Shown: positions 8,328-35,424 of the stretch, in pieces
How positions within the stretch are numbered: position 1 is the first letter of the stretch
Layout: every line of letters starts with the position of its first letter
Source: Patescibacteria group bacterium
GTDB taxonomy: Bacteria; Patescibacteriota; Minisyncoccia; UBA6257; GWB1-50-10
NCBI GenBank assembly: GCA_038065455.1
Contig: JBBTQX010000002.1
Location: forward strand, 6,779 to 70,778
Reading direction: 5' to 3'
DNA length: 64,000 nucleotides
The notes under the pieces: generated by a model
The model's input: the letters and a program-made list of their open reading frames with translations, nothing else
Database searches by the model: none
What the model was told of the DNA's origin: nothing
Program-made: the position numbers and the translations under genes

Positions 8328-8390
8328 ACCGGGCAGTAGAAATTCGATCAGTTCTTCTGCCGTGTTGCAATCGAATTTTCACTGCCCGGT
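8328..8390. repeat. family-2 inverted-repeat element, short copy
   Basis: accgggcagtagaaattcgat ... atcgaattttcactgcccggt: 21-nt arms, 19/21 complementary. The grpE stop codon lies inside the right arm. Confidence 0.75.
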
Positions 8391-17645: not shown

Positions 17646-19491
17646 TGATTCGGTTATTATAGTACCACAAGAAAACGTCCCTAGCCACCGGCACGACGTT
17701 CAAACTGCCTTCCCGCGCATTTTCCACGAGTATTAAAATGGCGATTTTGGGGTCGTCATAAGGAGCGAAGCCGACGAAAAACGCGTTGGTCTTCGTGTTG
17801 TTCGAAACCTGGGCCGAGCCGGTTTTGGCGGCGACCGGAATCGGCAAGTCATGCAGAAGATAGGAAGTGCCGTAATCCCGAATCACGCCTTCGCGCATCC
17901 CCTTCCTCACTTCCGCGAGCGCCGGACCGATCTCGGCCGAAAGGTCGCGGAGAATCGCCGCCTCGTTCTTCAAAATCGTCTCGCCTTTGATATTTTTTAT
18001 TTCATTCATCACGCGCGGCTTGTTCAGCTTGCCGCCATTTGCAACTGCATTTATGTAATTCAGAAGTTCGATGGGCGTCACCGAAAAATCGCCCTGGCCA
18101 ATCGAGACGTTGAAAGTATCTCCCAAGCGCCATGGCTCGCCTTTTACTCTTTCTTTCCATGCTGGATCCGGCAAGAAACCAGCATCCTCCCCCGTTAAAT
18201 CTATATTCGTCTTTTCGTCGAGACCGAAATTATGCCACCACTTTTTCAATCTTTCTATTCCCAAGCCTTTCTGGTCTCCGAAACCGCCGCCCACGGAATA
18301 GAAATAGACATTCGAGGAACGAGCCAGAGCCGAATATAAATCCACCCAACCCTGCGGCCGCCAATCCAAAAATCGGCTCGGATGCTCCGGGTTGTAGGGA
18401 TTCGGAACATCGAGATAGCCCGGCGAATAAATTTGATGTTTCGGATCCAAGATGCCTTCCGTAAGCGCCGCGGTTCCCACCAGGGGCTTAATGGTCGAAC
18501 CGGGATTGTAAATACCGGAAATCGCCCGATTAAAGAGCGGCTGATTGGCAGAGGTAAGATACTTTCCTATTTTATTCGAATCGAACGAAGGAATATTCAC
18601 AAGAGAAAGAACTTCGCCGTTCCGCGGGTCCATCGCTATCGCAAGGCCGGTATCCCGGCCCAAATCGCGAAGCGCTTGGCTCAAGCGGTCGTAGATATAT
18701 GTCTGGAGATCCCGATCAATAAAAGATGTAAGATTGTTGCCTGGAATCGGCTCCTGAACCGTTCTTTCTTTTTCGGTTCCGCCCACTGCGTTCGTGAGCG
18801 CAACCTTCTCACCGCTCGTTCCCCGAAGATATCCGTCGTAAAAAGCCTCGAGACCATTCCGCCCGACCTGGTCGTCGATATGCAACTCCGAATCTTTCTT
18901 CATATCACTCTTGTTTGCCAAACCAGTATAGCCGACTACGTGGGAAAATTTGAAAAGCGGCGTTTGAACGCGCCGGAACGACGGGTCTATCTCCAAGCCC
19001 GGAAGATTCGCGGCGGAGAGGGATACTAATTCATCGTGATCAAGATCGGGTTTCAAAAGAAATCGGTCGGTCAAATTCCAGTCCCGTTCCTCGAGAGCTC
19101 CAAGCACCTCGTTCTCATATAAACCCAAAGTATTCAAAACATCTCCAATTGCCATTCGCCTTTCCGCAGAAGTTTTCGGAAGAGATTTCGGAACGAGATA
19201 GGCATCGAAAGCGGGCTCGTTTTCGACCATAGCCTTTCCGAAACGGTCGTAGATAATCCCCCGCGGAGCGGGCTCCGTTTTTATATCGCTCATATTCGCC
19301 GTAGCGCGCCGGGAATAGGGTTCATGATTCAAGACCGCCAAGTTCACAAATTGGGCGAAGACGGCAAGAAAAACCAGCGCGACCAAGATGATGAAATTCC
19401 TGAAAACCCGGTCCGTGAGAGGAATTTCCAAAAGGTCTTCCTCGACCGTTCGGTCGGTCAGAATGTCTTCCAGATTAAGCTCGGGATTCAT
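17638..19491 (-). CDS. mrdA: penicillin-binding protein 2 (elongasome transpeptidase)
   Basis: STIKP (SxxK), SSN, KTGSA motifs. Follows mreBCD. Confidence 0.88.
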   Translation of the reverse strand: MNPELNLEDILTDRTVEEDLLEIPLTDRVFRNFIILVALVFLAVFAQFVNLAVLNHEPYSRRATANMSDIKTEPAPRGIIYDRFGKAMVENEPAFDAYLVPKSLPKTSAERRMAIGDVLNTLGLYENEVLGALEERDWNLTDRFLLKPDLDHDELVSLSAANLPGLEIDPSFRRVQTPLFKFSHVVGYTGLANKSDMKKDSELHIDDQVGRNGLEAFYDGYLRGTSGEKVALTNAVGGTEKERTVQEPIPGNNLTSFIDRDLQTYIYDRLSQALRDLGRDTGLAIAMDPRNGEVLSLVNIPSFDSNKIGKYLTSANQPLFNRAISGIYNPGSTIKPLVGTAALTEGILDPKHQIYSPGYLDVPNPYNPEHPSRFLDWRPQGWVDLYSALARSSNVYFYSVGGGFGDQKGLGIERLKKWWHNFGLDEKTNIDLTGEDAGFLPDPAWKERVKGEPWRLGDTFNVSIGQGDFSVTPIELLNYINAVANGGKLNKPRVMNEIKNIKGETILKNEAAILRDLSAEIGPALAEVRKGMREGVIRDYGTSYLLHDLPIPVAAKTGSAQVSNNTKTNAFFVGFAPYDDPKIAILILVENAREGSLNVVPVARDVFLWYYNNRING

Positions 19492-19616
19492 CCCGTTAGA
19501 AACAGGATGCGCTTAACAAGCACATCCGTCTAGATTCAAACGACTTTATTATTGCAATGTTCCCCTGTATTGTTTCCATGATATTTCTGAATTTGCCCGT
19601 TTCTAACGGGATTCAT
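19489..19616 (-). mobile_element. family-1 element, ORF-less copy D (MITE-like derivative of the GIY-YIG element)
   Basis: Gene-strand reading: ATGAATCCCGTTAGAAAC ... TGTTTCTAACGGG-ATG(mrdA). Shares the termini and subterminal hairpin of copies A-C. Confidence 0.75.
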
Positions 19617-28842: not shown

Positions 28843-29130
28843 ATGTATCCCGTTAGAGACATTTCTATGTATTACAATTACGTTTTAAGAAGCAAAAAAG
28901 ATGGGAAATGGTATACTGGCTACACGAATGATCTACGGAAGCGCTTTAGCCAGCACAATAGCGATAAATTCCCTCAATGGACCAAAAATCGGGGTCCTTT
29001 TGAAATCATATACTATGAAGCCTGCAAAGATCTGCAAGATGCAAGGTCGAGGGAATATTATCTAAAAACAGGAATGGGTAAACGTTATATCAAAAATAGG
29101 CTAAAGCGCTTCCTGTCTCTAACGGGATGA
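28843..29130 (+). mobile_element. family-1 element, ORF-bearing copy A (GIY-YIG ORF bounded by 15-bp TIRs)
   Basis: ATCCCGTTAGAGACA (28847-28861) is the exact reverse complement of TGTCTCTAACGGGAT (29114-29128). The ORF spans TIR to TIR. Confidence 0.75.
28843..29130 (+). CDS. small GIY-YIG nuclease-domain protein (COG2827/UPF0213-like)
   Basis: YNYVLRS..GKWYTGYTNDLRKRFSQHN...E..YLK: GIY, YIG, Arg and Glu positions present. Alternative start at ATG 28867. Confidence 0.8.
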   Translation: MYPVRDISMYYNYVLRSKKDGKWYTGYTNDLRKRFSQHNSDKFPQWTKNRGPFEIIYYEACKDLQDARSREYYLKTGMGKRYIKNRLKRFLSLTG

Positions 29131-33296: not shown

Positions 33297-33896
33297 TTAA
33301 CGCGAATAGAATTGGCCGACCACGTTTATATCGAAAGGTAGTTGCACTCCGGTAACGGGCGGTTTTGCCACGCACTCGCCTTTCAATTCCTCCGCTTTGA
33401 GCTTAAGCCACTCAGGCGGGGTGTATTGCTTCAACCGGAGTTGAATATCATCGAAAATCTTCGCCGAGCGGGATTCGGGCCGCACAGCAATAATGTCTTT
33501 AACCCTAACATAATAGGAAGGAATTGTCACTTTTCGGCCATTCACGTGGATATGGCCGTGGGAGACGAGCTGGCGGGCGATTCTCGGAGACTTCGCGAAT
33601 CCCAAAAGAAAAACCACGTGGTCGAGGCGGCTTTCGAGCTTGGTCATAATGCCGTCTTTGTCGGAATTCCGGAACATTCTCATCATCTGATGATTATTCA
33701 GCCCGTAAAGAATTTGGATTTTCTGTTTTTCCTGGAGCTGCTTTCCGAATTCGGAAACGGAGTGGCGCGCCTGGCCGTGCTGGCCCGGGCGGTAAGGATG
33801 GCGTACCATCGCGCACTTCGGCGAATTACAGCGGTCTCCCTTGAGGAAGAGTTTGATGCCCAGCGATCTTTCTTTTTTCTCTTTGATTCTTTTCAT
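33297..33896 (-). CDS. rpsD: 30S ribosomal protein S4
   Basis: S4 N-terminal Cys cluster (CNSPKC) and S4 RNA-binding domain. Start trimmed to ATG 33896; the track extension reads into the repeat. Confidence 0.9.
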   Translation of the reverse strand: MKRIKEKKERSLGIKLFLKGDRCNSPKCAMVRHPYRPGQHGQARHSVSEFGKQLQEKQKIQILYGLNNHQMMRMFRNSDKDGIMTKLESRLDHVVFLLGFAKSPRIARQLVSHGHIHVNGRKVTIPSYYVRVKDIIAVRPESRSAKIFDDIQLRLKQYTPPEWLKLKAEELKGECVAKPPVTGVQLPFDINVVGQFYSR

Positions 33897-34024
33897 CCCG
33901 TTTAGAGACAGGATACGCTTAAGAAGCATATCCGTGAAGCATTAGCCGATTCGACTTTATTGGATTCTATTGATTGTTTGATAATCATGTTATTCATAAG
34001 TTTGATGTCTCTAACGGGATTCAT
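33894..34024 (-). mobile_element. family-1 element, ORF-less copy B
   Basis: Gene-strand reading: ATGAATCCCGTTAGAGACA ... TGTCTCTAAACGGG-ATG(rpsD). Confidence 0.75.
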
Positions 34025-34030
34025 ATTTTT

Positions 34031-34175
34031 ACCAGGCAGTGAAAATGCGATTGCAAATCGTGATTGAATCGACGATTCTCGCTATTTCCAATGACCTTTT
34101 ATTTATATTCATATGTTTTGATATTATGATGGTTTTCGATTTGAATTCAATCTAATCGCATTTCTACTGCCTGGT
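34031..34175. repeat. family-2 inverted-repeat element, 145-nt copy
   Basis: accaggcagtgaaaatgcgatt ... aatcgcatttctactgcctggt. The interior is alignable with the copy at 8865-9009. The right end overlaps the rpsK stop codon. Confidence 0.75.
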
Positions 34176-35181: not shown

Positions 35182-35298
35182 TTATCCTTGTCTTTGTTTA
35201 TGCCTCGGGTTCTTGGCACATATGACGTAAACCCGCCCTTTTCGACGGACGGTCTTGCAAACGCTGCAGATTTTTTTTACCGATGCTCTGACTTTCAT
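35182..35298 (-). CDS. rpmJ: 50S ribosomal protein L36
   Basis: Hand-translated: [38 protein letters not shown] (38 aa). Absent from the ORF track because it is too short. Confidence 0.9.
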
Positions 35299-35424
35299 CC
35301 CGTTAGAGACAGGATACGCTTAAAAAGCGCATCCGTGATATGTCGCTTGGTTTGATTATTCCGACCTGTTGGTTATTCATATTGATACATTATTCAAAAT
35401 TTGTTTGTCTCTAACGGGATTCAT
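35296..35424 (-). mobile_element. family-1 element, ORF-less copy C
   Basis: Gene-strand reading: ATGAATCCCGTTAGAGACA ... TGTCTCTAACGGG-ATG(rpmJ). Confidence 0.75.

Follow-up and report, generated by a model that had tools for sequence, protein, structure and literature searches.

What maintains a small hairpin just in front of the start codons of unrelated genes? In the DNA analysed here, a 64,000-nt stretch of contig JBBTQX010000002.1 from a member of the Patescibacteria (hereafter the window), three short, gene-less elements at the starts of three different genes each carry such a hairpin just inside one of their terminal inverted repeats. A preliminary description of this DNA had attributed the conservation of the hairpin to selection at the RNA level, in the sense transcript of the downstream gene. 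In addition to re-examining these three copies, we compared them with a fourth copy in the window, which encodes a GIY-YIG nuclease, and with a large family of relatives in public genomes and metagenomes. The comparison shows that the stem is under selection for pairing and that it descends from a long-range helix in the nuclease-encoding form. We give an even chance to the reading that the hairpin is a cis-acting structure of the element itself, serving mobilisation and end identity.

The three hairpins, read on the minus strand, which is the gene strand, are the following:

33911..33933, minus strand: subterminal hairpin of copy B, GGATATGC-ttcttaa-GCGTATCC, with a 10-bp stem that includes one U-G pair
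35312..35334, minus strand: subterminal hairpin of copy C, GGATGCGC-tttttaa-GCGTATCC, with one G-U pair
19505..19527, minus strand: subterminal hairpin of copy D, GGATGTGC-ttgttaa-GCGCATCC, with one U-G pair

Their sequences and coordinates are as first described. The pattern GGATNNGC-N7-GCNNATCC occurs exactly three times in the window (0.2 occurrences expected), and on folding each stem lengthens to 10 bp with a loop of 3 nt. Stem position 5 is A-U in copy B, G-U in copy C and G-C in copy D, while position 6 is U-G, C-G and U-G, respectively; the pairing reported earlier at these two positions is borne out, including the wobble pairs on the gene strand, which read A-C or C-A on the plus strand. 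Folded with RNA parameters, the gene-strand hairpins of B, C and D reach -12.8, -14.6 and -14.7 kcal/mol (z-scores between -5.9 and -6.3) and the opposite strand -8.8, -9.9 and -11.2 kcal/mol, so that the sense RNA hairpin is 3.5-4.7 kcal/mol more stable. DNA parameters give the same ranking with smaller gaps (-6.7, -8.1 and -8.3 against -5.2, -6.9 and -6.4 kcal/mol). The distance from the end of the hairpin to the ATG is 14 nt, and not approximately 20 nt as had been stated, and the spacer, TGTCTCTAACGGG, is the terminal inverted repeat of the element.

With G-U rather than A-C pairs in three of three window copies and a more stable sense hairpin, the explanation that suggests itself is a function in RNA. 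Alone or stacked on the helix formed by the terminal repeats, the hairpin would keep the element harmless to translation of the host gene, and it could do so by any of three routes: by confining ribosomes that re-initiate after an upstream short open reading frame (ORF) has ended at the UAA or UGA of the repeat; through double-stranded RNA of at least 20 bp, cut by RNase III so that the start codon is released; or by capping the 5' end of the processed host mRNA. Correia and ERIC-type MITEs (transposable elements of miniature size with inverted repeats), which are transcribed and processed by RNase III, provide a precedent. The invariable 14 nt between hairpin and host AUG also favour such a function, as does the constant co-transcription of the elements with the host gene, and the A and U of the host AUG would otherwise lie buried in the helix predicted for the terminal repeats. 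We nevertheless consider a function in RNA, the strongest rival to the reading that we favour, possible rather than probable, and the wider family supplies evidence on both sides.

The elements that contain the hairpins share one anatomy. All four copies in the window are bounded by terminal inverted repeats, T-CCCGTTAGAGAC ... GTCTCTAACGGG-A, which measure 13-14 bp at both ends (TCCCGTTAGAGAC with GTCTCTAACGGGA), and the four copies belong to four different host genes:

28848..29127, plus strand: copy A, autonomous form, 280 bp, with terminal repeats at 28848-28860 and 29115-29127
33896..34019, minus strand: copy B, gene-less, 124 bp, at the start codon of rpsD (ribosomal protein S4), with its start-proximal repeat at 33896-33909 (with a 1-nt insertion), its distal repeat at 34007-34019 and the target duplication TGAA (ttca on the plus strand) at 33892-33895 and 34020-34023
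35298..35419, minus strand: copy C, gene-less, 122 bp, at the start codon of rpmJ (ribosomal protein L36), with the target duplication TGAA at 35294-35297 and 35420-35423
19491..19611, minus strand: copy D, gene-less, 121 bp, at the start codon of a PBP2-type transpeptidase gene, with the target duplication TGAA at 19487-19490 and 19612-19615

The last base of copy A (29127) is the A of the ATG (29127-29129) of a 414-aa PEGA-like gene. Copies C and D contain early stops, and no ORF is conserved in the short copies; the terminal repeats of copy D carry a matched double change, GAAAC with GTTTC. As copy A lies on the plus strand and copies B-D on the minus strand within one GC-skew regime, insertion orientation tracks the direction of the gene and not that of replication. 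The host gene of copy D begins ATGAATCCCGAGC (19470-19491, minus strand), which resembles the distal junction of the element, ATGAATCCCGTTAG; this start may have been left by a previous insertion or may reflect an extended target preference.

How widespread are these elements, and do they move? Public genomes and metagenomes were scanned with the 16-mer TGTCTCTAACGGGATG, which returned at least 119 and at least 120 loci in two scans, and the family counts given below rest on the matches listed from these scans (at least 239 loci). Together with the window they hold at least 244 unique elements with both repeats. Nearly all of the listed loci are from Patescibacteria, with a few in metagenome-assembled genomes (MAGs) of Planctomycetota or Proteobacteria and a few chance matches. 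Among the matches listed, the elements fall into size classes of ~114-121 bp (most copies), 272-289 bp (28 copies including copy A, all with a GIY-YIG gene) and ~63 bp. No copy longer than ~390 bp was found among these matches, so the GIY-YIG gene is the sole gene associated with the repeats. A larger element with a conventional transposase was also considered and rejected, since none lies within 1.5 kb of any terminal repeat in the matches listed.

Insertion takes place at the start codon itself. Of the 127 copies in the first set, 107 have behind them an in-frame ORF that is 60 codons or longer or that reaches the contig end, compared with 2 and 11 in the other frames, and in 75 of the 127 the 4-bp target duplication, TGNN, is equal at both ends. 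The start codon and following bases that agree between the ends are ATGAA in 53 copies, ATGGA in 12 and ATGAG in 5, besides ATGCC, ATGCG and ATGCA. Even copies with GTGAA, GTGGA or TTGGA at the upstream end have ATG at the downstream one; the duplication is therefore TGNN, and the terminal A of the element completes the host start codon. Empty sites were found in L240, a close relative with an identical L36 protein: both infA-TAAAGTTTTATGAAAGTC-rpmJ and the corresponding rpsD site (...AACATGAAAAGAATC) have neither element and a single TGAA, which confirms insertion or excision and demonstrates that the elements are mobile. Head-to-tail tandem copies at L015, L003 and L065 demonstrate that the elements insert into the ATGAA at the end of another copy. 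At L077 1061 and L232 2695, the junction codon before the long ORF is ATA, not ATG.

Orientation relative to the host gene is strongly biased, with 105 copies one way and ~4 reversed, as a function of the hairpin in the host mRNA would lead one to expect. However, the genes behind at least four of the reversed copies are intact, among them a murA-like one, and a start-codon-adjacent hairpin is therefore not strictly required for host expression. The 105:~4 bias, when set beside these intact genes, would argue against selection on the RNA in situ. The smallest members of the family, the 63-bp versions, were seen at L041 782, L043 7081, L062 5379 and L116 2304 and 2970 (Phycisphaerae and Planctomycetaceae MAGs). 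They consist of two terminal repeats around two small hairpins, giving a T shape, and occur in both orientations.

The origin of the hairpin becomes apparent from the nuclease gene of copy A:

28843..29130, plus strand: 95-aa GIY-YIG ORF of copy A (PF01541, E = 5.5e-16)

The upstream ATG at 28843 lies in frame with this ORF, in which codon 9 is a further, internal ATG; the TGA that ends the ORF shares bases with the host ATG (ATGA). The match to the GIY-YIG profile spans residues 9-76 and leaves a C-terminal LKRF tail outside; for the same residues the closest solved structures are 1zg2 (E = 3.2e-12) and 1ywl (E = 7.2e-5), and the affinity of the nuclease is thus to the UPF0213/Slx1 type. NCBIfam returned only a sub-threshold match, to a model for group I intron endonucleases (19.6 bits, with the cut-off at 56). 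UPF0213 is a minimal, stand-alone lineage related to structure-specific endonuclease and distinct from the I-TevI homing branch (PMC1564403). The protein family comprises 3,490 database clusters, typically of 94-95 aa, named only "GIY-YIG nuclease family protein". Public annotation starts the gene of copy A at the internal ATG (87 aa; 28867-29130) and therefore misses the ORF that is open from the duplicated host start through the terminal repeat.

In the autonomous copies, 14 nt beside the start-proximal repeat (encoding LKRF) are complementary to 14 nt located ~90 nt into the element (encoding RKRF, within the DLRKRF codons). In copy A the two arms are:

28937..28950, plus strand: 5' arm of the helix, GGAAGCGCTTTAGC, codons RKRFS, which is the 5' arm of the short-copy hairpin
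29100..29113, plus strand: 3' arm of the helix, GCTAAAGCGCTTCC, codons LKRF, 1 nt from the start-proximal repeat

The inverted repeat is perfect (14/14) in 9 of 20 autonomous copies, and their sequences differ. For an alignment of 26 autonomous copies, picked solely by repeat and length, RNAalifold predicts two helices alone, the terminal-repeat helix and the 14-bp inner helix. In the latter, 7 of the 14 pairs show compensatory changes, some of them synonymous (AAA with CGT, AAG with CGC), 94.5% of cells are paired and none of 500 shuffles matches the observed covariation. The short copies retain a degraded 5' end of the ORF, recognisable by the internal ATG and by TTACGG from codons D-L-R, and the arms of their hairpin are only 3-7 nt apart. 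Given this spacing and these remains of the ORF, the short-copy hairpin is, on sequence comparison, the 14-bp helix of the autonomous form after loss of the ~150-nt loop, and the gene-less ~118-bp copies are deletion derivatives.

The short copies themselves also bear signs of selection for pairing. When they are found by the terminal repeat alone, 109 of 178 have a hairpin that abuts the start-proximal repeat; shuffled sequences reach a rate of 0.6%, and positions elsewhere inside the elements 1%. The hairpins comprise 91 distinct sequences, whose stems include GGTCGCC, GGAAACGC, GGTTGCGGC, GGGGAT and GGATGCGC. A 25-sequence seed alignment has double changes at six of seven pairs and a covariation of 0.735 against 0.19 when shuffled; these sequences were picked for having the hairpin, and their 100% pairing is not independent evidence. 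Covariation, which the preliminary description had looked to a larger alignment to check, is thus strong in both forms, in this seed and in the 26 unselected autonomous copies. Furthermore, where a local hairpin is missing (69 copies), the same 3' arm finds a partner segment beside the distal repeat in 31 cases. Judged by these patterns, conservation applies to a second helix, which stacks on the terminal-repeat helix at its inner end, and the stem of the short copies is under selection for pairing.

The terminal repeats behave in a similar manner: across the family 98% of their pairs are Watson-Crick, and three inner positions co-vary, with 27 compensated pairs. Two 118-bp copies in one genome (L017, 6578 and 6790) differ at two positions only, which make up one compensated pair in a second hairpin (GCCGTT..AACGGC against GCCATT..AATGGC), and matched double changes appear between near-identical copies (L017, L044), although such comparisons cover 16 pairs only and are anecdotal. 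True orthologous insertions amount to one pair (L029, L098), in which six of six differences fall in the 5' region (p ~0.16), too few to use.

Might the complementarity have no function of its own? In the nuclease gene K-R-F is written AAGCGCTT twice. This sequence is self-complementary, and both arms encode (R/L)KRF, so that pairing could be a by-product of palindromic codons together with passive copy-correction, the arms being corrected in a fold-back DNA intermediate or by mismatch repair. The matched double changes in L017, L044 and the terminal repeats are what a symmetrising mechanism would give, and G-U and A-C pairs are about equally frequent in most helices. Nevertheless, the complementarity extends beyond the 8-nt palindrome, up to 14/14, and the short copies, which have no coding constraint, have all of the stems listed above paired. 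The LKRF tail, lying outside the GIY-YIG profile region, looks instead as if it had been shaped by the need to pair. We therefore regard a mere by-product as improbable.

If the stem is selected for pairing, in which molecule does it pair? Wobble pairs were counted with a hairpin finder that penalised G-T and A-C equally. The G-U:A-C ratio is 13:4 in the 91 unique short-copy hairpins (p = 0.049), but the window's own subfamily (GGATGCGC) contributes 8 of these 13 G-U pairs, and elsewhere the ratio is 5:3. Variant helices of the copies without a local hairpin give 4:1, so that the pooled ratio for the second helix of short copies is 17:5, which points to the sense strand, that is, the mRNA strand. 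The homologous helix of the autonomous copies, however, gives 8:8 and the terminal-repeat helix 24:21, and these two ratios argue for a role at the level of the DNA or the element. Across the 91 hairpins the folding energies of the two strands do not differ significantly (p = 0.24). Folds of whole elements show the same stability on either strand (-44.3 against -44.5, -39.7 against -39.6 and -42.8 against -40.3 kcal/mol) and are uninformative as a strand test because the terminal-repeat helix dominates them. Transitions in the distal repeat, read on the sense strand, show no excess of C-to-T (12) over G-to-A (16), and mutation bias is therefore no obvious explanation of the 13:4 ratio.

The G-T wobble is the mildest of DNA mismatches, so even a real G-U asymmetry would not separate RNA from single-stranded DNA of the sense strand. 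The sense-strand signal is modest and weak, is confined to the short copies, and would fit sense-strand single-stranded DNA as well as RNA. Of the earlier claim of RNA-level selection, the part concerning selection for pairing has thus stood up to the larger alignments, whereas its restriction to the sense strand is not established by ratios of 13:4, 8:8 and 24:21. The accompanying argument, that the host ATG lacks a good Shine-Dalgarno sequence, proved uninformative: in the 30 nt upstream of host starts the core GGAG/GAGG/AGGA occurs at 7% against 6% in the control, so that native host starts are unenriched too. These upstream regions are A/T-rich, with A preferred at -6 to -3.

Translation provides a further point for a function in RNA. 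In 43 of 125 short copies (34%), reading from the duplicated ATG meets no stop before the UAA or UGA of the repeat, compared with 4 and 1 copies for the other frames (1-3%) and 10.6% after shuffling, which hints at selection through translation. On the other side, the helix is equally conserved in the autonomous copies, where both arms belong to a translated ORF, with ~150 nt between them, and an ATGA overlap provides the coupling to the host gene, and approximately one third of the short copies have no local hairpin. Nor is there a relevant Rfam match: at the gathering threshold the whole window matched tRNA alone, and at E <= 1 the segment 33800-35500 gave chance matches alone (a plant miRNA and a Coxiella sRNA), far below threshold.

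A G+C-rich stem ahead of a gene could also be an intrinsic terminator or attenuator, and a permissive scan does flag copy D, whose repeat variant reads TGTTTCT. The same scan leaves copies B and C unflagged, and the stem runs not into a U-tract but into the conserved repeat, UGUCUCUAACGGG. The region contains 38 terminator-like matches against 26.9 +/- 6, which is not significant, and the elements lie inside operons directly before the essential genes rpmJ and rpsD. With no U-tract and only the variant of copy D passing a permissive scan, we rejected this reading as very improbable.

The reading that we favour, at even chance, is that the hairpin is a cis-acting structure for mobilisation and end identity. 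The autonomous form, ~275 bp long, consists of T-CCCGTTAGAGAC ... GTCTCTAACGGG-A around a single gene for a 95-aa nuclease of the Slx1/UPF0213 type. In a single-stranded or extruded element, the inner helix stacked on the terminal-repeat helix would create a folded stem of at least 20 bp, and it is this stem that the structure-specific nuclease may recognise. As the sole conserved asymmetry between two otherwise identical ends, the inner helix would also set insertion orientation, which the autonomous element presumably needs to have fixed so that the host start codon reads its ORF. The 63-bp versions, with a hairpin at each end, would for this reason occur in both orientations. Recognition of the folded element could likewise explain why inner repeat positions co-vary, and why near-identical copies in one genome differ by one compensated pair. 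Features retained in non-autonomous MITE derivatives are classically cis requirements for mobilisation. The G-U pairs of the window would then be tolerated intermediates, G-T in DNA, and no proof of RNA function.

Several points weigh against a role in mobilisation. The pooled 17:5 ratio favours the mRNA strand, the open frame that begins at the duplicated ATG may reflect selection by way of translation, and all copies are necessarily co-transcribed with the host gene. We know of no case in which a stand-alone GIY-YIG domain moves an element with terminal repeats, nor of any strand-transfer chemistry for it. Finally, an orientation set by gene direction fits poorly with a replication-fork mechanism on single-stranded DNA of the IS200 type.

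If mobilisation by the nuclease is combined with the other features of the family, a broader and more tentative proposal follows, to which we lean somewhat less than evenly: that these elements represent a previously unrecognised class of DNA transposon, and the smallest autonomous one (~275 bp). Its sole protein would be the Slx1-like GIY-YIG nuclease, predicted to recognise and cut the two-helix fold of the element. Integration would be in fixed orientation at the TGNN of start codons, with the ORF borrowing the host start and returning translation through ATGA. The class would have given rise to abundant MITEs, of ~118 bp and ~63 bp, that are spread over Patescibacteria and in some copies occur in other phyla.

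How does such an element compare with known systems? The short copies are MITEs in their size, lack of coding capacity, terminal repeats, target duplication, insertion polymorphism and relation to an autonomous element. They resemble the bacterial MITEs Correia/NEMIS, ERIC and RUP, which are likewise short, with terminal inverted repeats, a short target duplication and many copies per genome, which fold into a long hairpin and which lie in transcribed spacers next to genes. Unlike Correia, ERIC and RUP, however, the present elements insert at the start codon itself and rebuild the ATG, keep an extra inner helix at one end through covariation, and have as autonomous partner a 275-bp GIY-YIG element and not an insertion sequence (IS) with a DDE transposase. 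With IS200/IS605 and PATE elements they share a subterminal hairpin conserved as a structure, with wobble tolerated on one strand (though the strand bias here is weak, at 13:4, 8:8 and 24:21), a fixed orientation beside a short target and very small size. They differ from IS200/IS605 in having terminal inverted repeats and a 4-bp target duplication, in carrying the hairpin at one end only of the ~118-bp copies, and in being oriented by gene and not by replication. Furthermore, there is no HUH/Y1 transposase here, the sole ORF being GIY-YIG with no longer copies among the matches listed.

GIY-YIG homing endonuclease genes (I-TevI, Seg, Mob) are another parallel, as selfish elements whose sole gene encodes a GIY-YIG nuclease and whose expression is tied to the host gene by overlapping start and stop signals. 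In contrast to I-TevI, Seg and Mob, the nuclease here is a minimal 95-aa protein of the Slx1/UPF0213 type with no DNA-binding module and outside the homing-endonuclease/UvrC branch, and the elements have terminal repeats and a duplication and occupy many unrelated genes per genome, not one cognate allele. The protein is most similar to the stand-alone Slx1/UPF0213 proteins (YhbQ-like; 1zg2, 1ywl) in size, domain and best match to a solved structure. Stand-alone UPF0213 proteins are regarded as housekeeping factors of repair whose function is unknown, whereas the present gene is flanked by terminal repeats, sits at start codons and has given rise to non-coding derivatives. The T shape of the 63-bp versions, an outer stem with two small hairpins in both flip orientations, recalls the inverted terminal repeats of parvoviruses and adeno-associated virus. 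This is an analogy of shape only, with no Rep protein, viral context or sign of hairpin-primed replication. Overall, these comparisons suggest a MITE- or IS-like element with an unprecedented enzyme and target.

The family is apparently previously undescribed. Full-text literature searches on GIY-YIG with inverted repeats, start codon, MITE and candidate phyla radiation (CPR), covering the searchable libraries, found no published account, and one paper merely lists a GIY-YIG protein among genes transferred from Patescibacteria. If the GIY-YIG protein does mobilise these elements, it would define a new enzymatic class of prokaryotic transposons and a new lower size limit for autonomy, and it would provide a function for some of the widespread small nucleases of the UPF0213/Slx1 type. 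Through insertion at the start codon and rebuilding of the ATG, a parasite can live unharmfully in essential operons (rpmJ, rpsD) of reduced genomes. The inner helix also constrains synonymous sites of the nuclease gene and probably the C-terminal protein sequence, an overlap of coding and structural selection. Annotators use the internal ATG and overlook the elements as well as the duplication of the start codons, so that unannotated repeats stand directly at gene starts in hundreds of Patescibacteria genomes.

Other features of the window deserve brief mention. Directly upstream of copy B lies an unrelated inverted-repeat element, termed family 2 (34031-34175), with 22-nt terminal repeats consisting of ACCAGGCAGTGAAAATGCGATT and its reverse complement. 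It is missing from the orthologous rpsK-rpsD spacer of L240, where the left-hand AACCAGGCA is already present in the empty site. A 63-bp relative is found at 8328-8390 of the window, and a tRNA gene is located at 1015-1101.

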